Assembly (NCBI RefSeq): GCF_004210375.1
Contig: NC_134831.1
Coordinates: forward strand, 98,959,522 to 99,023,521
Direction: 5' to 3'
Source: Tachypleus tridentatus
Lineage: Eukaryota
Length of the DNA stretch: 64,000 nt
Part shown: positions 3,001 through 58,557 of the stretch, piece after piece
Position numbering within the stretch: position 1 is the stretch's first letter
Layout of the letters: each line of letters starts with the position of its first letter
Made by a program: the position numbers and the translations under genes
The notes under the pieces: generated by a model
What the model saw: the letters and a program-made list of their open reading frames with translations, nothing else
Databases searched by the model: none
What the model was told of the DNA's origin: nothing

Positions 3001-6000
3001 ACCAAATACCTAGAGAGAGAGAGAGGTCTAGTGTACCTGACAAATACCTCCTGGGTATACAAAATCATATATACCAAATACCTAGAGAGAGAGAGAGGTC
3101 TAGTGTACCTGACCCTCCTGGGTATACAAATATATATACCAAATACCTGAGAGAGAGAGAGAGGTCTAGTGTACCTGACCCTCCTGGGTATACAAATATA
3201 TATACCAAATACCTGAGAGAGAGAGAGAGGTCTAGTGTACCTGACCCTCCTGGGTATACAAATATATATACCAAATACCTAGAGAGAGAGAGTCTAGTGA
3301 CCCAACCCTCCTGGGTATACAAATATATATACCAAAATAGTGTACCTGACCCTCCTGGGTATACAAATATATATACCAAATACCTAGAGAGAGAGAGAGG
3401 TCTAGTGTACCTGACCCTCCTGGGTATACAAAATATATACCAAATACCTAGAGAGAGAGGTCTAGTGTACCTGACCCTCCTGGGTATACAAATATATATA
3501 CCAAATACCTAGAGAGAGAGAGGTCTAGTGTACCTGACCCTCCTGGGTATACAAATATATATACCAAATACCTAGAGAGAGAGAGAGGTCTAGTGTACCT
3601 GACCCTCCTGGGTATACAAATATATATACCAAATACCTAGAGAGAGAGAGAGGGTCTAGTGTACCTGACCCTCCTGGGTATACAAATATATATACCAAAA
3701 TACCTAGAGAGAGAGAGAGGTCTAGTGTACCTGACCCTCCTGGGTATACAAATATATATACCAAAATACCTAGAGAGAGAGAGGTCTAGTGTACCTGACC
3801 CTCCTGGGTATACAAATATATATACCCAAATACCTAGAGAGAGAGAGGTCTAGTGTACCTGACCCTCCTGGGTATACAAATATATATACCAAATACCTAG
3901 AGAGAGAGAGGTCTAGTGTACCTGACCCTCCTGGGTATACAAATATATATACCAAATACCTAGAGAGAGAGAGGTCTAGTGTACCTGACCCTCCTGGGTA
4001 TACAAATATATATATACCAAATACCTAGAGAGAGAGAGGTCTAGTGTACCTGACCCTCCTGGGTATACAAATATATATACCAAATACCTAGAGAGAGAGA
4101 GAGGTCTAGTGTACCTGACCCTCCTGGGTATACAAATATATATACCAAATACCTAGAGAGAGAGAGAGTGTACCTGACCTAGAGAGAGAGAGAGAAGGGG
4201 TCCTGGGTATACAAATATATATACCAAATACCTAGAGAGAGAGAGAGGTCTAGTGTACCTGACCCTCCTGGGTATACAAATATATATACCAAATACCTAG
4301 AGAGAGAGAGAGGTCTAGTGTACCTGACTCTCCTGAGTATACAAATATATATACCAAATACCTAGAGAGAGAGAGAGGTCTAGTGTACCTGACCCTCATG
4401 GGTATACAAATATATATACCAAATACATAGAGAGAGAGAAGTCTAGTGTACCTGACACTCCTGGGTATACAAATATATATACCATAAAACCTAGAGAGAG
4501 AGAGAGGTATAGTGTACCCAACCCTCCTGGGTATACAAATATATATACCAAAATACCGATAGAGAGAGAGAGGTCTAGTGTACCCGACCCTCCTGGGTAC
4601 ACAAATATATATACCAAATACCTAGAGAGAGAGGCCAAGTGTAGCTGACCCTCCTGGGTATACAAATATATATACCCAAATACCTAGAGAGAGAGAGGTC
4701 TAGTGTACCTGACCCTCCTGGGTATACAAATATATATACCAAATACCTAGAGAGAGAGGTCAAGTGTAGCTGACCCTCCTTGGTATACATACATATATAC
4801 CAAATACCTAGAGAGAGAGAGAGGTCTAGTGTACGTGACCCTCCTGGGTATACAAATATATATACCAAATACCTAGAGAGAGAGAGAGAGAGGTCTAGTG
4901 TACCTGACTCTCCTGAGTATACAAATATATATACCAAATACCTAGAGAGAGAGAGAGGTCTAGTGTACCTGACCCTCATGGGTTTTCAAATATATATACC
5001 AAATACCTAGAGAGAGAGAGAAGTCTAGTGTACCTGACCCTCCTGGGTATACAAATACATATACCATAAAACCTAGAGAGAGAGAGAGAGGTCTAGTGTA
5101 CCCGACCCTCCTGGGTATACAAATATATATACCAAAATACCAATAGAGAGAGAGAGGTCTAGTGTACCCGACCCTCCTGGGTATACAAATATATATACCA
5201 AAATTCCGATAGAGAGAGAGAGGTCTAGTGTACCCGACCCTCCTGGGTATACAAATATATATACCAAAATATCGATAGAGAGAGAGAGGTCTAATGTACC
5301 TGACCCTCCAGAGTATACAAATATATATACCAAATACCTAGTGAGAAAGGTCTAGTGTACCTGACCCTCCTCAGTATACAAATATATATACCAAATACCT
5401 AGACAGAGAGAGGTCTAGTGTACCTGACCCTCCTGGGTATACAAATATATATACCAAAACATCTTGAGAGAGAGAGGTCTAGTGTACCTGACCCTCCTGG
5501 GTATACAAATATATATACCAAATACCTAGAGAGTGAGAGGTCTAGTGTACCTGAGCCTCCTGGGTATACAAATATATATACCAAATACCTAGAGAGAGAG
5601 AGAGGTCTAGTGTTCCTGACCCTCATGGGTATACAAACAAATATTCCAAAATACCTAGAGAAAGAGAGGTCTAGTGTACCTGACCCTCCTGGGTATACAA
5701 ATATATATATCCAAATACCTAGAGAGAGAGAGAGAGGTCTAGTGTACCTAACCCTCCTGGGTAGACAAATATATACCAAAATACCTAGAGAGAGAGAGAG
5801 GTCTAGTGTACCTGACCTCCTGGGTATACAAATATATATACCAAATACCTAGAGAGAGAGAGAGGTCTAGTGTACCTGACCCTCCTGGGTATACAAATAT
5901 ATATACCAAAATACCCGAGAGAGAGAGAGGTCTAGTGTACCCGACCCTCCTGGGTATACAAATATATATACCAAAATACCGATAGAGAGAGAGAGGTCTA

Positions 6001-9000
6001 GTGTACCCGACCCTCCTGGGTATACAAATATATATACCAAATACCTAGAGAGAGAGAGGTCTAGTGTACCTGACCCTCCTGGGTATACAAATATATATAC
6101 CAAATACCTAGAGAGAGAGGTCAAGTGTAGCTGACCCTCCTTGGTATACATACATATATACCAAATACCTAGAGAGAGAGAGAGGTCTAGTGTACCTGAC
6201 CCTCCTGGGTATACAAATATATATACCATAAAACCTAGAGAGAGAGAGGTCTAGTGTACCCGACCCTCCTGGGTATACAAATATATATACCAAAATACCA
6301 ATAGAGAGAGAGAGAGGTCTAGTGTACCCGACCCTCCTGGGTATACAAATATATATACCAAAATACCGATAGAGAGAGAGAGGTCTAGTGTACCCGACCC
6401 TCCTGGGTATACAAATATATATACCAAATACCTAGAGAGAGAGAGGTCTAGTGTACCTGACCCTCCTGGGTATACAAATATATATACCAAATACCTAGAG
6501 AGTGAGAGGTCTAGTGTACCTGACCCTCCTGGGTATACAAATATATATACCAAATACCTAGAGAGAGAGAGGTCTAGTGTACCTGACCCTCCTGGGTATA
6601 CAAATATATATACCAAATACCTAGAGAGAGAGGTCAAGTGTACCTGACCCTCCTGGGTATACAATATATATATACCAAATACCTAGAGAGAGAGAGAGGT
6701 CTAGTGTACCTGACCCTCCTGGGTATACAAATATATATACCAAATACCTAGAGAGAGAGAGGTCTAGTGTACCTGACCCTCCTGGGTATACAAATATATA
6801 TACCAAAATACCTAGAGAGAGAGAGAGGTCTAGTGTACCTGACCCTCCTGGGTATACAAATATATATACCAAATACCTAGAGAGAGAGAGGTCTAGTGTA
6901 CCTGACCCTCCTGGGTATACACATATATATACCAAATACCTAGAGAGAGAGGCCAAGTGTACCTGACCCTCCTGGGTATACAAATATATATACCAAATAC
7001 CTAGAGAGAGAGAGAGGTCTAGTGTACCTGACCCTCCTGGGTATACAAATATATATACCAAATACCTAGAGAGAGAGAGAGGTCTAGTGTACCTGACCCT
7101 CCTGGGTATACAAATATATATACCAAATACCTAGAGAGAGAGAGAGGTCTAGTGTACCTGACCCTCCTGGGTATACAAATATATATACCAAATACATAGA
7201 GAGAGAGAAGTCTAGTGTACCTGACCCTCCTGGGTATACAAATATATATACCAAATACCTAGAGAGAGAGAGAGGTCTAGTGTACCTGACCCTCCTGGGT
7301 ATACAAATATATATACCAAATACCTAGAGAGAGAGAGGTCTAGTGTACCTGACCCTCCTGGGTATACAAATATATATACCAAATACCTAGAGAGAGAGGT
7401 CTAGTGTAGCTGACCCTCCTGGGTATACAAATATATATACCAAATACCTAGAGAGAGAGGTCTAGTGTACCTGACCCTCCTGGGTATACAAATATATATA
7501 CCAAATACCTAGAGAGAGAGAGGTCTAGTGTAGCTGACCCTCCTGGGTATACAAATATATATACCAAATACCTAGAGAGAGAGAGAGGTCTAGTGTACCT
7601 GACCCTCCTGGGTATACAAATATATATACCAAATACCTAGAGAGAGAGAGGTCTAGTGTACCTGACCCTCCTGGGTATACAAATATATATACCAAATACC
7701 TAGAGAGAGAGAGGTCTAGTGTACCTGACCCTCCTGGGTATACAAATATATATACCAAATACCTAGAGAGAGAGAGGTCTAGTGTACCTGACCCTCCTGG
7801 GTATACAAATATATATACCAAAATACCGAGAGAGAGAGAGGTCTAGTGTACCTGACCCTCCTGGTATACAAATATATATACCAAATACCTAGAGAGAGAG
7901 AAGGTCTAGTGTACCTGACCCTCCTGGGTATACAAATATATATACCCAAATACCTAGAGAGAGAGAGAGGTCTAGTGTACCTGACCCTCCTGGGTATACA
8001 AATATATATACCATAAAACCTAGAGAGAGAGAGAGGTCTAGTGTACCTGACCCTCCTGGGTATACAAATATATATACCAAATACCTAGAGAGAGAGAGGT
8101 CTAGTGTACCTGACCCTCCTGGGTATACAAATATATATACCAAATACCTAGAGAGAGAGAGGTCTAGTGTACCTGACCCTCCTGGGTATACAAATATATA
8201 TACCAAATACCTAGAGAGAGAGGTCTAGTGTACCTGACCCTCCTGGGTTTACAAATATATATACCAAATACCTAGAGAGAGAGAGAGTCTAGTGTACCTG
8301 ACCCTCCTGGGTATACAAATATATATACCATAAAACCTAGAGAGAGAGAGAGGTCTAGTGTACCTGACCCTCCTGGGTATACAAATATATATACCAAAAT
8401 ACCAATAGAGAGAGAGAGGTCTAGTGTACCTGACCCTCCTGGGTATACAAATATATATACCAAATACCGATAGAGAGAGAGAGGTCTAGTGTACCTGACC
8501 CTCCTGGGTATACAAATATATATACCAAAATACCGATAGAGAGAGAGAGGTCTAGTGTACCTGACCCTCCTGGGTATACAAATATATATACCAAATACCT
8601 AGAGAGAGAAGGTCTAGTGTACCTGACCTCTCCGGTATACAAATATATATACCAAATACCTAGACAGAGAGAGGTCTAGTGTACCTGACCCTCCTGGGTA
8701 TACAAATATATATACCAAAACATCTTGAGAGAGAGAGGTCTAGTGTACCTGACCCTCCTGGGTATACAAATATATATACCAAATACCTAGAGAGAGAGAG
8801 AGAGAGGTCTAGTGTACCTGAGCCTCCTGGGTATACAAATATATATACCAAATACCTAGAGAGAGAGAGAGGTCTAGTGTACCTGACCCTCCTGGGTATA
8901 CAAATATATATACCAAATACCTAGAGAGAGAGAGGTCTAGTGTACCTGACCCTCCTGGGTATACAAATATATATACCAAATACCTAGAGAGAGAGAGAGG

Positions 9001-36942: not shown

Positions 36943-37097
36943 CTTTCATTGTTTTTCCGAACGTAGTTTTGTGGTCCAACTTCGACTCTTGTTACGTTAG
37001 TCGTCTGATCTAACACGTGCAAATAGTAATACGTGGGAACACGGTAGATGCCATCATCATCACTTTGGCATCTTAAATTGTGTTTTGTTCCTGCCAT
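36943..37097 (-). CDS. MVP: Major vault protein, first coding exon: ATG at 37097-37095, 51 codons plus 2 nt (phase 2) to a GT donor at 36942-36941 (..AATGAAAG|gtaaag)
   Basis: Minus-strand translation is MAGTKHNLRCQSDDDGIYRVPTYYYLHVLDQTTNVTRVEVGPQNYVRKNNE(R). It aligns to the MVP N-terminus (human ..[36 protein letters not shown]|VLFAP..) with identical HVLDQ..NV.RVEVGP..Y.R..NER spacing. The exon ends exactly where R would be completed, followed by a consensus donor. An in-frame TGA lies 8 codons upstream of the ATG. At 52 aa it falls below the ORF-track cutoff. Confidence 0.7.
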
Positions 37098-38065
37098 CTC
37101 AGCAAACAATACAGCAAAACTTCATTCCATCAGACTTTACAATAGAAATGAAAAACAAGTAAAGTTATCCAATGCCCAGTTTTTATACAAATGTACATGT
37201 AAATATAAAAACTAACATTAAACCATGGTAACTTGCATACAGTATAAATCAAGTTTAGGAGAGTTATGAGGAATTAATACATTTTTATTAAGTTGAAATC
37301 ACACGACCACAACTCTATAGTTATATTCTTCTTTTAAAGTAACTTAGAGAGTGTCTTTGACAGATGAATTAATATACTTCTTGTGCTTTTATAAGCCAAA
37401 AAATACTGTCCAAGATAAACCCAAAACATCAGAAGTCCATTAAAAGTATGGGTCACCACCAGCGTTACTCCTAAGCAGCACGGCCACAGAATAACCAATC
37501 AAGTATGAAGCACTTAATTATTCTATACATACACATTCTCAGTAATGGTCAGGAGTCTCATCACACTGAAAGTCCTAATGAATTGGGCAATTAATAGGCC
37601 TAAAGCCCAAATGACCACACATTGATACTATTACATATAAAAAATTTGTTCTGTACATAAATTAAAAATGTTAGAGGGAACATTGATCACCACAAACTGA
37701 TGTGTTAATACAGAACACAATAACCATCATCACAATATATACAGAAAGAACAACGAAATATATAGTTTACTGACATCTAACAGTTCAAGTTGATGGCCTA
37801 AACCATACACCTTGGATGAAAACACAATGTTTAATAACACTACAAATGTTTGCTCAATAGGCAAGTTATATTTTCCAATTTCAGGATTCAGTATTTTAAA
37901 GTCTATCAAAGTGTCTATCAATTTTAAATAAGAATACTTAAGCACTTAAGACTTCCTTTATCAAGTTTACTAATTTTATATATGAATGTCAACAATGCCA
38001 ACATATGAATGCTGTGTCTGTGATGAAGTAGTGAACCAGCGTTCTGATCAAATCTTATTATGTAA

Positions 38066-40674
38066 CAACTGGGTCATTCCATCTCAAATCATCCAGAGGG
38101 CTACAGGCGACCCCAACAGAATGCCTTGAAAAAGTTCACATGTGCTCATCTACCCATATAATGAAAAACTGCCAAAGATTAGATCAATATCTCTAATAGT
38201 TTCTGATTTACAGCCCTGTAAAATGTAGGTAATTTTGTTTTATTTTTGGCAAGAGTAATGGTGGTAGAATGCTGAGATTTACTACACTGACTGAATTAAT
38301 CTCACAGAATTCAAACATGGTCTCAAACCAAGTTTATCTCTCTTAGGAATTTCATAGTGAGGCTGTAAAATCACCTGAAAACCCAAAATTGTAAGAAACA
38401 TTGGTTTCTGTAATAAGTCATAGCCCTAAGACTTAATATGATACAAAGCTGAATATTGTTTTCTAATTTCCTATAACATATCAGTTGATAAATCAGCAAT
38501 TGTTGTTATTAAAAGTCTGTTAGATCTCCTGTACAAAAATGTAGCTGCAAGCAACTTTTTATGATGTAGCTCAAAATAGCCCTACTTCAGGCCACAGTTT
38601 GACCATGTCACCAGCTATTCAGCCTTTTCAGATTTTTACCATATATTCTTACATCACTGAATATGATCTACAAAAAAAAATCAGGATGGTGTACAACCTA
38701 ATTTTTGAGTTATAATTTTTTGAAAGTATCCTCTGACCATACGTTTTTTTTTTTTTTAAAAAATTCAGTTCAGGCGTGTTACTTTGTGCAAATATACCAT
38801 ACAATTTTGAAAAATACCTGTCAAAATTTTATGAATCCCACTTGAATATTCTAACCAGCCTTTCACAATGTAAAATAATGAAGTTGTAAGATACAAGAAA
38901 GAATTAATTCATTTCTGAACAAGTTTATTGGCATAACTAGTTAGATCACATGGCAATGCAAATATATTGTGTATGCATTACAGATATGGCTGAGTTTAAG
39001 AATCATAATATAATTAATTCAAAGGTAAATCAGACACAAAAAGCTCAGTGCTACAACAAAGGATAACTGAGAAAGAGTATAGTCACACCAAACTGCAATA
39101 ATCGTGACAATGAAATGTTCCAAAAACTGCTTTGGCGATAAATCAGCCTTAACAACATCAAATAAACATTGCTTTGTTCAGAAAGCTTGAATAAATTTCT
39201 GAAATTCAAGTTTGACTATGTTGAGGTCACTTTGACTTAGAACATAGTGGCATGCATATCTGCCTTGCATGGTAGGTGCACTATCAGACAAAGAATATGT
39301 TGGAAAGGAATCCAGCTTTCATCTTTATGTGACCTTGCAGGCCAAGAGAACAGTTCATTTCTTGATTTCTTCATAAATAACACCAACACATTGGAATGTT
39401 CATCTGATCTATCTTTTATGTTTCACACAACCATTCATGATCGTATATGCATGCTACATATTTCCCTGGCTGATAATTGTCATTGCTATCATTAGACTCT
39501 ATTTGAGCTGCTGTAGCATCACTTTCACTGCTACTACCAACAGTTACAACTGTGTACACATCATCACCTTCTCATATAGAATGTGTTGGTAGAATAAAGC
39601 TATGATGTGACCTAATACCTGCCACAGTTTTGTGTTTTTCATAGTGCTCAAGTTGATCAAACTTTACATAATTCTGCAGGACTGATTCCTGATTGACAAG
39701 AAAGAACTGAATGCCCTGAATGTGGTTCTTTGCCCAATGGTGCATATCAGAGACACTTAAAAATTGATAATTTATTATTTTTCACAACCTTGATTTTTTT
39801 TTAAGATCATGTTCAGAGATGTAAGAATATATGGTAAAGGCTGATTAGAATATTTCAATGGGATTCATAAATTATTTCAAAATTGTATGGATATATTTGC
39901 ACACAGTAACACACCTGACTTGAAGTGGTTTTTTTTTCCAAGTAAACAACATATGGTCAGGGGATACGTTAAAAAACTATAACTCAAAAAGTAGGTTGAA
40001 CACCATCTTGATTTTTATTGTAGATCATATTCAGAGATGTAAGAATATATGGTAAAAATCTGAAAAGGCTGAATAATTGGTGACATGGTCAAACTGTGAC
40101 CTGAAGTAGGGCTATTTTGAGCTACATCATAAAAAGTTGCTTGCAGCTACATTTTTTTACAGGAGATCTAACAGACTTTTAATTACAACAATTGCTGATT
40201 TATCAACTGATATGTTATAGGAAATTAGAAAACAATATTCAGCTTTGTATCATATTAAGTCTTAGAGCTATAGCTTATTAAATAAACCAATGTTTTTTTA
40301 TGATTTGGGGTTTTCAGGTGATTTTACAGCCTCACTATGAAAATCCTAAGAGAGATAAACTTGGTTTGAGACCATTTTTGAATTCTGTGAGATTAATTCA
40401 GTCAGTGTTGCAAATTTCAGCCTTCTACCACCATTAGTCTTGCAGCTTTAAGCAGCCAAAGTTGCACGAAAATGAATTTGCCAAAAATAACAAAAAATTA
40501 ACTAAAGTTTATAGGGCTCTAAATCAGAAGCTATTAGAGATATTGATCTTATCTTTGGTAATGTTTCATTATATGGGTAAATGAACACTTGTAAATTTTT
40601 TCAAGGCATTCCGAAGGGGTCACCTGGAAAATTGTCCAAAATCTGGATGATTTGACATGGAATGACCCAACTGT
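38066..40674. repeat. Foldback-type large inverted repeat: left arm ~38066-38866, right arm ~39835-40674 (about 800-840 bp each, ~85 percent identical as reverse complements) separated by a ~0.95 kb spacer. The right arm carries an extra ~38 bp internal duplication (39803-39840 vs 40020-40066)
   Basis: Example pairings: left gggtcattccatctcaaatcatccagagggctacaggcgaccccaacagaatgccttgaaaaagttcacatgtgctcatctacccatataatgaaa vs reverse complement of right gtttcattatatgggtaaatgaacacttgtaaattttttcaaggcattccgaaggggtcacctggaaaattgtccaaaatctggatgatttgacatggaatgaccc. Left gccacagtttgaccatgtcaccagctattcagccttttcagatttttaccatatattcttacatcactgaatatgatcta pairs with right tagatcatattcagagatgtaagaatatatggtaaaaatctgaaaaggctgaataattggtgacatggtcaaactgtgacc. 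Confidence 0.8.
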
Positions 40675-41458
40675 ATCCAGAATTAAGCCATCTAAAGACT
40701 ATCTTTTATCCTAAATGTCACAATATTATTTCACTGGTTCATATCCAAATCAATAACAACTACACAAAAGTAAAGAACAATAATAATATAAACAACCAGA
40801 CAAAGTTATCTCTTGATTTTTAGACAATTATAACATGTCTACATAAATTAGTGATATTTACAATTGTATGTTTTTCACTTCAAATAAGTGCTAGACCTTA
40901 CTGTTAAATTTGATTCAGAGAAACACGTTAACGATTAATTTGCAGTAGTAGCAATTGTATCATAAAAGAGCTATCTTGACAATATTCTGCTACAAAAACT
41001 TTCAACATATTTCTTCCAGCTTTTTGTATCTGAAAAAACAAAACACCTGTTCATCCCTACATATCGTCCTTAGCCTAATATTCAACCTACTTAGAATTAT
41101 ATCCCCAGAGTAACATCATGCCAATCTTTATTAATTACCCTTACATGCAACATTAGCCCCTATGTGAATAATAAAACTTTTGTCAATGCTACACCCTTTA
41201 TATTACCTCACTTACCTTATCATTTATGTCCTTCAACCACACTTCTGGTAATATGATTAACTAAGACATAGTTTCAAAAGCAACTACCAAATGTTTACAT
41301 TTGAATAATGACATGTTTGTCTGCTATACCACTGTCCTAATCTTAGAATTATCTCTGAGGTGCATATGTATTTCACCAGCTTTTCTTCTAAACTACTTAT
41401 ATAACAAATTCCTCATAGGTACATAACTGTTAGTAACATGTAAAGCACAAAAAAAAAT

Positions 41459-41733
41459 TAAACAAAAGGTAACTGTAACTATCCCTCTAATAACTGTTAA
41501 ACAAAAGGTAACTTTAACTATCCTTCTAATAACTGTTAAACAAAAGGTAACTGTAACTATTCTTCTAATAACTGTTAAACAAAAGGTAACTGTAACTATC
41601 CTTCTAATAACTGTTAAACAAAAGGTAACTGTAACTATTCTTCTAATAACTGTTAAACAAAAGGTAACTGTAACTATCCTTCTAATAACTGTTAAACAAA
41701 AGGTAACTTTAACTATCCTTCTAATAACTGTTC
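41459..41733. repeat. 39-bp minisatellite, ~7 copies (unit aacaaaaggtaactgtaactatccttctaataactgtta)
   Basis: Direct reading. The minus-strand ORF 41393..41779 with the 13-aa periodic VIRRIVTVTFCLT peptide is a by-product of this repeat. Confidence 0.92.
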
Positions 41734-46792: not shown

Positions 46793-47801
46793 TCAGTAGT
46801 GAGTTGTACGGCCGTCATTGCAAATAACTTCAAAAATTCGCTTTGGCATGGTCGATATAAGCGTTTGCAGAAGGCTGGCTGGAATGTTATTCAAAGTGGT
46901 GAAGATGGCTTCACAAAAATTATGCATTATTTGGAATTGACGTCCATTTCTGTAGATTTCCCTTGTCATCCACCCCCAAACATTGTCAACGGGGTTCAGT
47001 TCAGGCGAACACGCTTGATGGTCCAAAAGAATCACGTTATTCGCCATGAAAAGTCCTTTGTCCTGCGGGCATTGTGGATTGCAACATTGTCCTGCTGAAA
47101 GATCCAGTCCACACAAGCGAGGGCCTTCAGTCAATAAGGATGCTCTCTCCAACATGCCAATGTAGCCTGCTGCTGTTTGACAGCCCTATATAACCTGAAG
47201 CTCCATTGTTCCATGAAAGGAGAAAAGCACCCCAGATCATGAAGGAACCTCCTCCACTGTGTCGTGTAGAAAATGTCTTCGGTTGGATATCCTTATCGTG
47301 CCAGTAACGTTAGAAGCCATCTGGACCATCCAGGTTAATTTTTTTCTCATCAGAGAACAAAACATTCTTCCACTTTTCTACATCCCATGTTTGGTGCTTC
47401 TCAGCAAAGTTTAACCGAGCTGTTTCATGGTGTGGAAGGAGACGTGGCCTTTGAAGATAGTTACAGTTTTTAAAGCCTTTCTCTCGTATATGCTGTCTTA
47501 TTGTTCTTGAGCCGCATTCTACGTCCGTAAAAGCCTTAATCTAGTTTGACGATCGGCTGGTGTCTTGCCGGACGACCCGTCGAATCCTCCTGCTCAACAC
47601 CAGCAAAATTTTCTTGGGCCGACCACTTGAAATTCTCGTTCCATATCCCTCAGGGTCTTTTAAGAAATTTGCAACAGCAGTTTTAAGACGTCCAATCTCA
47701 CCAACGATGGCACGTTGAGAGAGACCTTGCTTTTGCAGCTCCACAATTCTGCCACGCTCAAACTCTGTCAACGTTTTAGCCTTTGCCACGTATTTACCCA
47801 A
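46793..47801 (-). pseudogene. Tc1-like transposase, frameshifted into at least two ORFs (N-terminal helix-turn-helix ORF 47541-47801; C-terminal catalytic ORF 46793-47155)
   Basis: N-terminal part MGKYVAKAKTLTEFERGRIVELQKQGLSQRAIVGEIGRLKTAVANFLKDPEGYGTRISSGRPKKILLVLSRRIRRVV.. resembles Tc1/Sleeping-Beauty-type paired-like DNA-binding domains. C-terminal part ..NNVILLDHQACSPELNPVDNVWGWMTREIYRNGRQFQIMHNFCEAIFTTLNNIPASLLQTLISTMPKRIFEVICNDGRTTHY aligns to the Tc1 motif ..[25 protein letters not shown]...MPRR...AVI.AKGG.TKY. The central catalytic region is broken by frameshifts, and the third catalytic residue reads D (NPVD) instead of E. Confidence 0.8.
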
Positions 47802-50298: not shown

Positions 50299-50563
50299 AG
50301 GCCCAGCATGGCCAAGTGGTTAAGGCACTCGACTCGTAATCCGAGGGTCCCGGGTTCGAATCCCTGTCAGACCAAACGTGCTCGCTCTTTCAGGCATGGG
50401 GGCGTTATAATGATACGACCAATCCTACTATTCGTTGATAAAAAGAGTAGCCCAAGAGTTGGCGGTGATGACTAACTGCCTTCCGTCTAGACTTACACTG
50501 CTCAAGTGGGGACGACGAGCGCAGATAGCTCTTGTGTAGCTTTGCGCGAAATTAAAAAAAAAA
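50299..50563 (+). mobile_element. tRNA-derived SINE copy (plus orientation): best-preserved tRNA-like head, then family body, then A-rich tail
   Basis: GGCCCAGCATGGCCAAGTGGTTAAGGCACTCGACTCGTAATCCGAGGGTCCCGGGTTCGAATCCCTGTCAGACC followed by the reverse complement of the shared body (..gatacgaccaatcctactattcgttgataaaaagagtagcccaagagttggcggtgatgactaactgccttcc..gcagatagctcttgtgtagctttgcgcgaaatt) and aaaaaaaaaa. The anticodon arm is non-canonical (CTCGACTCG duplication), so this is not a functional tRNA gene. Confidence 0.8.
50308..50362 (+). promoter_or_regulatory. Putative internal Pol III promoter of the SINE: A box TGGCCAAGTGG (50308-50318) and B box GGTTCGAATCC (50352-50362)
   Basis: Matches the consensus A box TRGCNNAGTGG and B box GGTTCGANTCC with tRNA-like spacing. 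The other SINE copies carry mutated B boxes (GGTTCGCGCCC). Confidence 0.5.
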
Positions 50564-53980: not shown

Positions 53981-54938
53981 ACAGTTCTAGTTATTACCTA
54001 CCACAGTAAGATGGCCATACAGTTCTAGTTATTACGTATGTACTTACCACAGTAAGATGGCCATACAGTTCTAGTTATTACGTATGTACCTACCACAGTA
54101 AGATGGCCATACAGTTCTAGTTATTATGTATGTACCTACCACAGTAAGATGGCCATACAGTTCTAGTTATTACGTATGTACCTACCACAGTAAGATGGCC
54201 ATACAGTTCTAGTTATTACGTATGTACTTACCACAGTAAGATGGCCATACAGTTCTAGTTATTACGTATGTACCTACCACAGTAAGATGGCCATACAGTT
54301 CTAGTTATTATGTATGTACCTACCACAGTAAGATGGCCATACAGTTCTAGTTATTACGTATGTACCTACCACAGTAAGATGGCCATACAGTTCTAGTTAT
54401 TACGTATGTACCTACCACAGTAAGATGGCCATACAGTTCTAGTTATTATGTATGTACCTACCACAGTAAGATGGCCATACAGTTCTAGTTATTACGTATG
54501 TACCTACCACAGTAAGATGGCCATACAGTTCTAGTTATTACGTATGTACCTACCACAGTAAGATGGCCATACAGTTCTAGTTATTACGTATGTACCTACC
54601 ACAGTAAGATGGCCATACAGTTCTAGTTATTATGTATGTACCTACCACAGTAAGATGGCCATACAGTTCTAGTTATTACGTATGTACCTACCACAGTAAG
54701 ATGGCCATACAGTTCTAGTTATTACGTATGTACCTACCACAGTAAGATGGCCATACAGTTCTAGTTATTACGTATGTACCTACCACAGTAAGATGGCCAT
54801 ACAGTTCTAGTTATTACGTATGTACCTACCACAGTAAGATGGCCATACAGTTCTAGTTATTATGTATGTACCTATCACAGTAAGATGGCCATACAGTTCT
54901 AGTTATTACGTATGTACTTACCACAGTAAGATGGCCAT
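53981..54938. repeat. 46-bp minisatellite, ~21 copies (unit ccacagtaagatggccatacagttctagttattacgtatgtaccta), with three unit subtypes (..cgtatgtaccta, ..tgtatgtaccta, ..cgtatgtactta)
   Basis: Direct reading. The T-subtype recurs at 54125, 54310, 54448, 54632 and 54862, that is every 3-5 units. The plus-strand ORF 54862..55119 starts inside the last units and is an artefact. Confidence 0.95.
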
Positions 54939-57620: not shown

Positions 57621-58557
57621 GGTAAGAAAGACAAAAGTTCCAGCTTTATAGATATAATAGTGATATATAAGCTAATGAATAAGTTTTGCCAGACACAGTT
57701 TAGACTTTATAGACATGGAACTATTACATAATAAGACATAATCAGTTAAGGGAGACAAAGTTTCAACTTTATAGATATAATAGTGATATATAAGCTAATT
57801 AATAAGTTATGCCAGACACAGTTTAGACTTTATAGACATGGAACTATTACATAATAAGACATAATCAGTTAAGGGAGACAAAGTTTCAACTTCAAAGATA
57901 GTGAACTGCTACATGAGAAGATACAATCACTTAAGATAAGCCAAAGTTGTAACTTCAAAGATAGGGAACTGCTACATGAGAAGATACAATCCCTTAAGAT
58001 AAGCCAAAGTTGTAACTTCAAAGATAGGGAACTGATACATGAGAAGATACAATCACTTAAGGTAAGCCAAAGTTGTAACTTCAAAGATAGGGAACTGATA
58101 CATGAGAAGATACAATCACTTAAGGTAAGCCAAAGTTGTAACTTCAAAGATAGGGAACTGATACATGAGAAGATACAATCACTTAAGGTAAGCCAAAGTT
58201 GTAACTTCAAAGATAGGGAACTGCTACATAAAAAGATACAATCATTTAAGGTAAGCCAAAGTTGTAACTTCAAAGATAGGGAACTGCTACATAAGAAGAT
58301 ACAATCACTTAAGATAAGCCAAAGTTGTAACTTAAAAGACAGGGAACTGCTACATGAGAAGATACAATCACTTAAGATGAGCCAAAGTTGTAACTTCAAA
58401 GATAGGGAACTGATACATGAGAAGATACAATCACTTAAGGTAAGCCAAAGTTGTAACTTCAAAGATAGGGAACTGATACATGAGAAGATACAATCACTTA
58501 AGATAAGCCAAAGTTGTAACTTCAAAGATAGGGAACTGCTACATGAGAAGATGCAGT
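57621..58557. repeat. Complex intronic minisatellite: 122-bp unit x2 (57627-57870) followed by a related 63-bp unit x~10.6 (57889-58557; unit ggaactgctacatgagaagatacaatcacttaagataagccaaagttgtaacttcaaagata)
   Basis: Direct reading. The 63-mer shares its ...aagggagacaaagtttcaactt.aaagata core with the 122-mer. Minus-strand ORF 57869..58525 (218 aa, 21-aa periodic LKLQLWL.LSDCIFSC.SSLS) and plus-strand ORF 58377..58559 are repeat artefacts. The array lies in the intron between the myosin exons at 59066-59207 and 57374-57444. Confidence 0.9.

Follow-up and report, generated by a model that had tools for sequence, protein, structure and literature searches.

The long inverted-repeat structure at positions 38071–40668 of the 64,000-nucleotide stretch of Tachypleus tridentatus DNA analysed here (the window) is, very probably, one old, internally deleted and decayed non-autonomous insertion of a Sola2 transposon; it is a new element of an already known kind. 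Its exact limits and component parts are listed in Table 1.

Table 1. Components of the decayed Sola2 element and its flanking duplication, in window coordinates.
Feature	Position	Strand	Details
Target-site duplication, left copy (AACT)	38067–38070		Read from the sequence; identical to 40669–40672
Left terminal inverted repeat (arm)	38071–38863	+	793 bp; 90.3% identity to 39836–40668 excluding gaps
Left terminal motif, GGGTCATTCCATCTCAAATCATCCAGA	38071–38097	+	26/27 bases equal to the right end
Spacer	38864–39835		972 bp
Internal non-coding segment	38864–39177	-	314 bp, from the left arm to the stop codon of the transposase; 3' UTR of the parent element
Sola2 transposase pseudogene remnant	39178–39782	-	Last ~190 codons, residues ~620–812 of P0010
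56-nt filler	39783–39838	+	Direct duplicate of right-arm segment 40001–40056; 89% identical; coincides with the deletion junction
Right terminal inverted repeat (arm)	39836–40668	-	833 bp; 38-nt and 9-nt insertions relative to the left arm
Right terminal motif, GGGTCATTCCATGTCAAATCATCCAGA	40642–40668	-	28/28 bases equal to one end of the L007 miniature element (metagenome contig)
Target-site duplication, right copy (AACT)	40669–40672		Read from the sequence; perfect 4-bp pair

The basic geometry described in the earlier note, inverted arms of about 0.8 kb around a spacer of about 0.95 kb, was confirmed, and its arm identity of about 85% was a fair estimate; the global alignment (708 matches, 76 mismatches and 68 gap columns in eight indels, which include one of 38 nt and one of 12 nt) gave 90.3% without gaps and 83% with gaps. 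When the region was compared with its own reverse strand by blastn, the arms were recovered as an outer match (38070–38252 vs. 40478–40669; 82.8% over 192 columns, E = 7.5e-43), a main match (38249–38815 vs. 39871–40443; 91.1% over 575 columns, E = 0), and a short inner inverted piece (38828–38863 vs. 39836–39871). Arm identity was uneven, with 96% in the middle 200–300 nt and 81–87% outward (Fisher p = 0.002), a pattern that simple neutral decay does not predict and that counts against it. As comparison with a relative suggests, the divergence of the outer arms is in part inherited from the family: the 9-nt insertion in the right arm (ATTTTGGAC, after terminal position 26) has a counterpart at one end of the intact element L011. 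The sub-repeat previously reported for each arm was confirmed in part: it is a homologous segment of the two arms (38635–38688 and 40001–40056) plus one extra copy, the filler of Table 1. The arms do not appear to be coding; the longest stop-free frame in the left arm, the end facing the 3' end of the transposase remnant, is at most 59 codons. A search for further copies of the arms by way of a 501-aa concatenate of their translations (spurious ORFs) had no match in the protein collection, a negative of little weight. Scans of the element against Pfam, Rfam and a tRNA library were likewise empty, and scans against viral contigs found no match.

Tandem Repeats Finder detected no tandem arrays in 38066–40674, which bears on the comparison with Foldback elements drawn in the earlier note. 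Foldback (FB) elements of Drosophila have arms composed of short tandem repeats and are flanked by 9-bp duplications. The window element has their overall shape, with long inverted arms around a short middle, and likewise has no coding capacity of its own; yet two defining features fail, since its arms are without tandem sub-repeats and its duplication measures 4 bp instead of 9 bp, and both its internal remnant and its termini are those of Sola2. Membership in the FB family in the strict sense is thus extremely improbable; from the original description as a [quoted passage not shown], the non-autonomous transposon with long inverted ends can be retained, but not the Foldback family.

Both ends of the element start with GGGTCATTCCAT, and the flanking direct duplication stops at 4 bp; flanks of 5 bp or more do not match. 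The terminal motif, presumed at the left end to be the transposase-binding end, had only two matches in the 64-kb window, compared to 0.01 expected by chance, and it occurs at the outer arm ends only; the inner arm ends are without it. The initial 21 nt of the right motif recurred exactly in 12 other contigs, and the first 10–13 nt of the element are identical to both termini of the intact elements L009 and L011. Perfect 4-bp duplications, each of different sequence (AAAA, ATAT, CATT, GAAA and ACCT), flank five relatives elsewhere. According to the Repbase rule, non-autonomous elements share the duplication length of an autonomous family member and match its terminal positions 1–11 with no more than one mismatch (PMC4455052). 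In the window element, GGGTCATTCCA agrees at 11 of 11 positions with both ends of L009 and at 11 of 11 and 10 of 11 positions with the two ends of L011, and a duplication length of 4 bp is common to all three. As a side observation, the reconstructed empty site (TGTAACAACTGTATCCAG, with a single AACT) yields a 32-codon ORF with two CxxC motifs, probably by chance.

These termini also weigh on two ways in which the structure could have arisen other than as a single transposon. Ordinary, non-mobile DNA duplicated locally in inverted orientation, as by template switching during replication, would leave a palindrome-like structure unrelated to transposition; such an origin would be in keeping with the single occurrence of the arm pair within the window and with the templated 56-nt duplicate at the junction, which replication-based rearrangements also produce. 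It is nevertheless exceedingly improbable, since a perfect 4-bp direct duplication encloses the structure, the spacer contains a matching transposase remnant, and the outer 27-nt motif recurs at the ends of autonomous as well as miniature elements on unrelated contigs, all of which have 4-bp duplications of their own. The target-site duplication, together with termini specific to the family, excludes the simple local inversion-duplication that the earlier note had named as a refuting outcome. Alternatively, a repeat of about 0.8 kb could have inserted twice, independently and in opposite orientation, 1 kb apart, with an unrelated scrap of transposase in between. The inner and outer limits of both arms coincide, as they would for two full-length short repeats, but a motif confined to the outer ends, one duplication pair around the whole structure instead of one per arm, and the exact repeat-ORF-repeat layout of intact family members make two insertions very improbable.

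Among other transposon families, Kolobok and piggyBac generate 4-bp duplications that are specific for TTAA, and Kolobok termini, like those of the window element, begin with purines (PMC9587614); none of the six duplications (AACT, AAAA, ATAT, CATT, GAAA, ACCT) is TTAA, and both families were rejected. Tc1/mariner was rejected in the absence of a TA duplication and of any match between the full-length transposases and Tc1/mariner Pfam models. Reading the ends as Tc1/mariner or hAT termini (CAGTTGGG/CAACTGGG) beside TA or an 8-bp duplication was likewise discarded, as the intact relatives fix the terminus at GGG and the duplication at 4 bp. Ends of the form CAGT... beside TA are also wrong; the apparent mismatch CAACT/CAGTT reflects the direct 4-bp duplication.

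Copies related to the window element were found in other eukaryotic contigs, as the earlier note had anticipated for a mobile element: two intact elements, one derivative of near-identical foldback architecture, and two miniatures. The intact homologs, whose terminal inverted repeats (TIRs) start with the same GGGTCATTCC as the window element, are L009 (5183 bp, with 648-bp TIRs at 98% identity, duplication AAAA, and an 812-aa ORF) and L011 (4805 bp, with 642-bp aligned repeats at 96.7% identity, ~672 bp when counted from the terminal motif, duplication ATAT, and an 820-aa ORF). The miniature elements L015 (244 bp, duplication GAAA) and L007 (68 bp, duplication ACCT) share the common termini. 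In a further contig (L008), inverted repeats of at least 228 bp reach both contig ends. The derivative L017 (OZ220027.1, labelled as a Stappiaceae MAG; positions 3845–6108; 2264 bp, with ~0.8-kb arms at 91% identity and the duplication CATT) resembles the window copy in its termini, the length of its duplication, its arm size, and the C-terminal transposase scrap in its spacer, which begins no more than about four codons from the point where the window copy is broken. It differs in being an almost complete palindrome, in which the ORF scrap is duplicated in inverted orientation around a centre near element position 1228, and its arm DNA is unrelated to the window arms past the terminal ~27 nt. 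More generally, alignment of the window arms to the repeats of L009, L011 and L017 is confined to the terminal ~27–130 nt, a point against the Sola2 reading. Another such point is a full-length transposase homolog (L006) that showed no long inverted repeat in its available flanks of 1.3 kb and 2.0 kb; four metagenome contigs (L001–L004) match the coding remnant only, and L005 is too short for repeats to show. Two observations stand apart: the GGGTCATTCC termini of Sola2 stay conserved at transposase identities of only 25–50%, and several published bacterial MAG bins contain eukaryotic Sola2-bearing contigs.

The family assignment proceeds through the full-length transposases. Residues 467–596 of the L009 transposase (P0010) were 52% identical over 130 aa to the catalytic core of Sola2-1_HM (E = 4e-48), vs. 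no match to the cores of Sola1-1_AP (E = 0.055) and Sola3-1_HM (E = 4.5); the Sola2-1_HM core is the one printed in the supplement of PMC3985635. The remnant in the window, whose reading frame shifts twice (near 39425 and near 39282) and contains one in-frame stop, is 73% identical to the Tachypleus tridentatus protein P0001 (E = 6e-76), and tblastn linked it to full-length transposases at E-values from 5e-10 (P0010) to 3e-21. Its homology to Sola2 is established by this chain, from the remnant to P0001 and P0010 and from there to the Sola2-1_HM core, as the remnant itself does not overlap with the core. The three aspartates D475, D560 and D601 were invariant in 23 of 23 full-length family members, and in a predicted structure (pLDDT 75.7) they are located at the ends of strands 1 and 4 and at the start of the following helix; on this model, the family's DDD triad is placed as expected for an RNase H-like core, and Foldseek returned weak matches to RNase H-like nucleases (E = 0.008–0.1). 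The window copy has none of the three putative catalytic residues; its remnant begins past all of them, after D601. It covers the C-terminus of the Sola2 transposase, which appears to be a Tudor-like domain.

Sola transposons are characterized by a DDD transposase, 4-bp duplications, repeats of 11–1124 bp, and a size of 2–9 kb (PMC10741241). The TIR lengths of 793/833 bp in the window, 648 bp in L009, ~672 bp in L011, and ~800 bp in L017 lie within this range, and since TIRs of 0.65–0.8 kb are normal for the family, the window copy is not unusual in having long arms. A Pfam scan of the remnant found no family; the empty Pfam scans fit the assignment, because Sola has no Pfam model (PMC5751038). 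With Sola2-1_HM (Hydra, Repbase), the window element has in common the 4-bp duplication, the long TIRs, and a DDD transposase without a Pfam model; it differs from Sola2 in being non-autonomous, as it keeps only the last ~190 codons of the transposase, frameshifted and outside the catalytic core. The distance from stop codon to arm, 314 bp, compares to 193 bp in L009 and 207 bp in L011, and this segment (38864–39177) matched none of the other sequences retrieved.

Given the ends, the duplication, the identity of the remnant and the long repeats of intact relatives, the foldback shape is accounted for by two natural ends drawn close by an internal deletion of ~3 kb, in which the 5' internal region was lost along with ~620 of the ~820 codons; the C-terminal ~190 codons, now broken, and the 3' untranslated part are left. 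For the rest of its history, the following is proposed. The parent element would have inserted by cut-and-paste transposition with a DDD transposase, duplicating AACT. That the deletion occurred through interrupted repair of a double-strand gap is inferred because the junction contains a 56-nt filler whose template lies at a distance of 218 bp; this filler is also complementary to 38635–38688 and has no counterpart beside the left arm. A scenario in which the arms arose by copying one end onto the other is unnecessary, as autonomous relatives already have 650-bp repeats. After the deletion, the copy would have been mobile only with transposase supplied by another element, and it would have decayed neutrally since, to arms that differ by 7–10% plus eight indels.

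The proximity to MVP, placed by the earlier note at about 1 kb, was verified: MVP exon 1 runs from 37096 to 36942 on the minus strand, with the ATG at 37096 and the splice donor AG/gtaaag, and the left end of the element lies 975 bp upstream of this ATG. RNA folding, a check suggested in the earlier note, yielded -1294 kcal/mol and ~700 arm-to-arm pairs for the 2609 nt of the plus strand, vs. -548 ± 8 kcal/mol for ten mononucleotide shuffles; transcription through the element would give a long imperfect hairpin, like any long-ended transposon. The element could be a co-opted relic that acts as a promoter element, or whose hairpin transcript is processed by dicing into small RNAs, silencing Sola2 relatives or fine-tuning the neighbouring MVP gene. 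Precedents exist in hairpin RNA loci, such as the hpRNA genes of Drosophila, and in the maize Mu killer locus, and the window element would share their duplex potential of several hundred base pairs, if transcribed; these loci are defined by transcripts and small RNAs, and what was computed for the window element is its folding potential. The predicted long imperfect duplex, the distance of 975 bp from the MVP start codon, and the better match in the middle of the arms are consistent with co-option, which is still unlikely overall: folding potential of this kind is common to every long-ended transposon, the element matches no Rfam family, and the 76 arm mismatches and eight indels, including the large ones of 38 nt and 12 nt, are as under unconstrained decay. 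The specific version in which a transcript across both arms, for example from or towards the MVP promoter, would give rise to small RNAs silencing Sola2 in trans or modulating MVP, with selection having kept the central arm pairing, is slightly more doubtful still. Existing knowledge of inverted repeats suggests that cruciform-driven fragility would be unlikely with a spacer of ~1 kb and 10% arm divergence. Read as a decayed Sola2 insertion, the element has no product of its own, and nothing points to a role for it in the host.

The result is mainly a correction, in that a raw structure of exotic appearance turns out to be the expected remains of a Sola2 element with normal ends of 0.65–0.8 kb. 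For annotation, it supplies the exact limits 38071–40668, the target-site duplication, and the family of a large inverted repeat that begins 1 kb upstream of the ATG of MVP. The conserved termini of Sola2, its apparent Tudor-like C-terminal end, and the occurrence of Sola2 contigs in bacterial MAG bins may be of interest to transposon specialists.

A comparison of the region 37.5–41.2 kb with its own opposite strand yielded three inverted matches, and the inverted repeat claimed in the earlier note is real, far beyond chance; the global alignment of the two arms comprised 708 matches, 76 mismatches (35 transitions and 41 transversions) and 8 indels spanning 68 columns, for 90.3% identity with gaps left out. 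As RNA, the 2609-nt foldback had a computed energy of -1294 kcal/mol with approximately 700 arm-to-arm pairs, against -548 ± 8 kcal/mol for ten mononucleotide shuffles. Arm identity varies along the length: 81–87% in the outer 190 nt, 96% at 38418–38617 and, over the innermost 150 nt, 85% (Fisher p = 0.002 for the outer versus the middle part); pre-existing asymmetry of the ends, gene conversion between the arms, or chance are possible causes. Further arm copies were not found within the 64-kb window, and Tandem Repeats Finder detected no arrays inside the arms. The observed/expected CpG ratio is 0.13–0.17 in both arms with their short flanks, suggesting that CpG sites in this genome are heavily methylated and have decayed.

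The minus strand of the spacer carries coding sequence for the C-terminal part of a protein, in which two frameshifts and a single in-frame stop interrupt the reading frame. Its conceptual translation found no match in Pfam; its best match was an "uncharacterized protein" of the horseshoe crab Tachypleus tridentatus (73% identity, E 6e-76), and it also matched four metagenome proteins. A profile made from two of the spacer-protein matches recovered 4141 proteins at E ≤ 0.001 among 1.8 billion representatives. The longest of these (800–880 aa) aligned only through their last ~260 residues, and therefore the window carries the tail of a protein of ~820 aa, belonging to a very large, multi-copy family as is typical for transposable-element proteins. 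The remnant corresponds to residues ~620–812 of P0010, the transposase of the related element in contig L009, all beyond the third catalytic aspartate.

The outermost 27 nt are near-identical between the arms (26/27), and an exact search with them in JGI metagenome contigs retrieved a single contig (L007), where the two ends almost abut, forming a miniature element of 68 bp; this contig also carries a 486-aa reading frame with weak matches to the CACTA-like families Transposase_21 and DUF4218, and its source is a transposon-rich eukaryote. The DNA flanking full-length relatives of the spacer protein was retrieved and checked for inverted repeats. In L009 both repeats start GGGTCATTCCATGCCAAC, with AAAA on either side; in a second contig, L011, they start GGGTCATTCCGTG and GGGTCATTCCACG, with ATAT on either side; in a third, L008, repeats of at least 228 bp reach both contig ends. 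With the terminus set at GGG, the window element has AACT as the four bases on both sides; the tip mismatches of a first reading (CAACT against CAGTT) are in fact this direct duplication. Between stop codon and arm there are 314 bp in the window; the corresponding distances in L009 and L011 are 193 and 207 bp. Arms and spacer therefore belong to one element, arranged as in its intact relatives. Past the first ~130 nt, arm DNA could not be aligned between lineages.

Exact matches to the 21 nt at the tip of the element turned up in 12 contigs from the GTDB genome collection; every one is labelled as a bacterial MAG, yet they have 34–45% G+C and carry a eukaryote-type element. Among them, L017 holds a foldback with a C-terminal transposase scrap inside, L015 a miniature element, and L023 and L019 portions of autonomous copies, from the 3' and the 5' side respectively. 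Perfect 4-bp duplications flank six of six complete elements (AACT, AAAA, ATAT, CATT, GAAA, and ACCT), each with a chance probability of 1/256, and TTAA is not among the six. The 12 contigs from the GTDB species set, some of which also carry Sola2 transposase reading frames, are filed as "Stappiaceae MAG chromosomes" (L013, OZ220008.1; L017, OZ220027.1), Saprospiraceae MAGs (L014, L020, L021), a Dysgonomonas MAG (L018, L023), or otherwise as bacterial MAG (L012, L015, L016, L019, L022); one measures 143 kb and another 813 kb, and DNA from eukaryotic hosts or the environment is probably present in their bins.

Coordinates of the inverted-repeat element, its relatives, and neighboring features
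Feature	Sequence	Position	Strand	Details
Element	window	38071-40668		
Left arm	window	38071-38863		793 bp
Right arm	window	39836-40668		833 bp
Arm match 1	window	38249-38815 / 39871-40443	inverted	91.1% over 575 columns, E=0
Arm match 2	window	38070-38252 / 40478-40669	inverted	82.8% over 192 columns, E 7.5e-43
Arm match 3	window	38828-38863 / 39836-39871	inverted	short, inner
Low-CpG segments	window	38030-38900; 39800-40710		
Spacer	window	38864-39835		
Transposase remnant	window	39782-39178	minus	
Predicted Tudor-like part	window	39282-39480	minus	
Junction filler	window	39783-39838		56 nt, 89% to 40001-40056
ATTTT(T)GGR insertion	window	40634-40642		
ATTTT(T)GGR insertion	L011	9317-9326		
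Reading frame	L009	10001-12439		812 aa
Inverted repeats	L009	8096-8743; 12633-13278		648 bp, 98% identity
Reading frame	L011			820 aa
Inverted repeats	L011			~670 bp, flanking; 642 bp aligned, 96.7%
Foldback	L017	3845-6108		2264 bp; arms ~0.8 kb at 91%; duplication CATT
Miniature element	L015			244 bp; duplication GAAA
Reading frame	L007	4-1464		486 aa
MVP exon 1	window	37096-36942	minus	ATG at 37096; donor AG/gtaaag
Satellite array	window	1-33435		63-bp unit, 128-bp dimer periodicity
Minisatellite	window	41458-41732		39 bp x 7
Minisatellite	window	53995-54938		46 bp x 20.5, 98% matches
Minisatellite	window	57840-58552		63 bp x 11
Tc1-like transposase remnant	window	46793-47801	minus	two reading frames
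tRNA-like sequence	window	50308-50367	plus	30.9 bits (Rfam gathering score 29)

Three aspartates (D475, D560, and D601 in P0010) and several cysteines and histidines are invariant in 23 full-length members. An AlphaFold model (mean pLDDT 75.7) predicts an RNase H-like beta-beta-beta-alpha-beta core in which the first two aspartates follow strands 1 and 4, and the third opens the next helix; for this core Foldseek returned only weak PDB matches (herpesvirus terminase nuclease, Argonaute PIWI, and NurA; E 0.008–0.1). The deciding comparison set P0010 against the Repbase reference RNase H cores in the supplement of PMC3985635: with that of the Hydra transposon Sola2-1_HM, 52% of residues were identical in a 130-aa alignment (E 4e-48), compared with E 0.055 over 12 residues for Sola1-1_AP and E 4.5 for Sola3-1_HM. 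The published description of Sola elements, with a DDD transposase, 4-bp duplications, repeats of 11–1124 bp and a size of 2–9 kb (PMC10741241), and, unlike most superfamilies, without a Pfam model (PMC5751038), agrees with the features of the window element and its relatives. Repbase groups non-autonomous elements by equal duplication length and at most one mismatch in terminal positions 1–11 (PMC4455052); the window element is therefore grouped with the Sola2 elements of L009 and L011. It is a non-autonomous Sola2 transposon that has decayed and lost internal sequence. The earlier note was right about a non-autonomous element with long inverted repeats, but the element is not a member of the Foldback family.

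The Sola2 transposase ends in a conserved region (GKYVA..YD..WY.G ... F.WP..D..W.P; P0010 ~715–780) predicted to fold as a Tudor-like barrel, and this is the portion that survives in the window. Foldseek aligned ~60 residues with the Tudor/chromo barrels of PHF1, PHF19, SMN, and TDRD3 (probability 1.0, TM 0.7–0.82); for PHF1 and PHF19, whose Tudor domains read H3K36me3, TM is 0.8 and the E-values are only 0.04–0.1. The modeled fold hints at chromatin-guided targeting.

Relative to L009 and L011, the window copy lacks ~3 kb, namely the 5' internal region and ~620 codons. At the deletion junction, which extends from the break in the reading frame (39782) to the inner limit of the right arm (39836), a filler copies sequence from 218 bp deeper in the right arm; the filler has no counterpart beside the left arm. 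Templated filler at deletion junctions is a trace of interrupted gap repair in other cut-and-paste transposons, and the internal deletion may have arisen in this way, leaving the 56-nt filler. The window break falls near codon 618–622 of P0010 and the palindrome center of L017 (element position ~1228) near codon 622–623, about four codons apart in a gene of ~820 codons, with arm DNA in common only at the tips; the shared position could reflect a breakage hotspot or coincidence (~1%, judged post hoc).

Of the 556 aligned bases in the inner, better-aligned part of the arms (38253–38815), 41 are mismatched (7.4%), against 9.7% over the whole arm. Because an insertion of 9–10 nt, ATTTT(T)GGR, follows terminal position 25/26 at one end only in both the window and L011, part of the outer difference predates insertion of the window element. 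The end with ATTTT(T)GGR lies 3' of the reading frame in L011 and 5' of the remnant in the window; the internal part may have been inverted when the long arms recombined with each other, or else the asymmetry may be independent of orientation. By way of illustration only, and very roughly, 7–10% arm divergence would correspond to 5–7 million years at a tick-genome rate (quoted in bioRxiv 10.1101/2024.03.13.584159) that may not be the rate of the host.

Since MVP is read from the minus strand, the element lies 975 bp upstream of its start codon, confirming the placement in the earlier note. Downstream of MVP exon 1 stands an uninterrupted satellite of more than 33 kb (~91% matches, uniform 41% G+C) that extends past the window start. 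A second MVP exon was not detectable in the 64-kb window; either the whole array lies inside MVP intron 1, or exon 1 is an orphan. In silico excision of the element with one AACT (37986–38070 joined to 40673 onward) produced a 32-codon reading frame, MSTMPTYECCVCDEVVNQRSDQILLCNNCIQN plus stop, with two CxxC motifs, probably by chance. Elsewhere in the window, a Tc1-like transposase remnant with weak Pfam matches (HTH_Tnp_Tc3_1 and DDE_3) bears no relation to the Sola2 element. A tRNA-like sequence without an ARAGORN call, overlapped on the other strand by a Plastid-ycf2 match well below threshold, may derive from the head of a SINE of tRNA origin. Three minisatellites were also recorded.

The arms hold no reading frame longer than 59 codons, Rfam and tRNA scans of the element were empty, and nothing points to a function of the element. 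The hairpin-derived small RNAs, influence on the MVP promoter and fragility raised in the earlier note would be hypothetical roles, and co-option of the element is unlikely. Judging from its well-kept termini, a related transposase could in principle still mobilize it.
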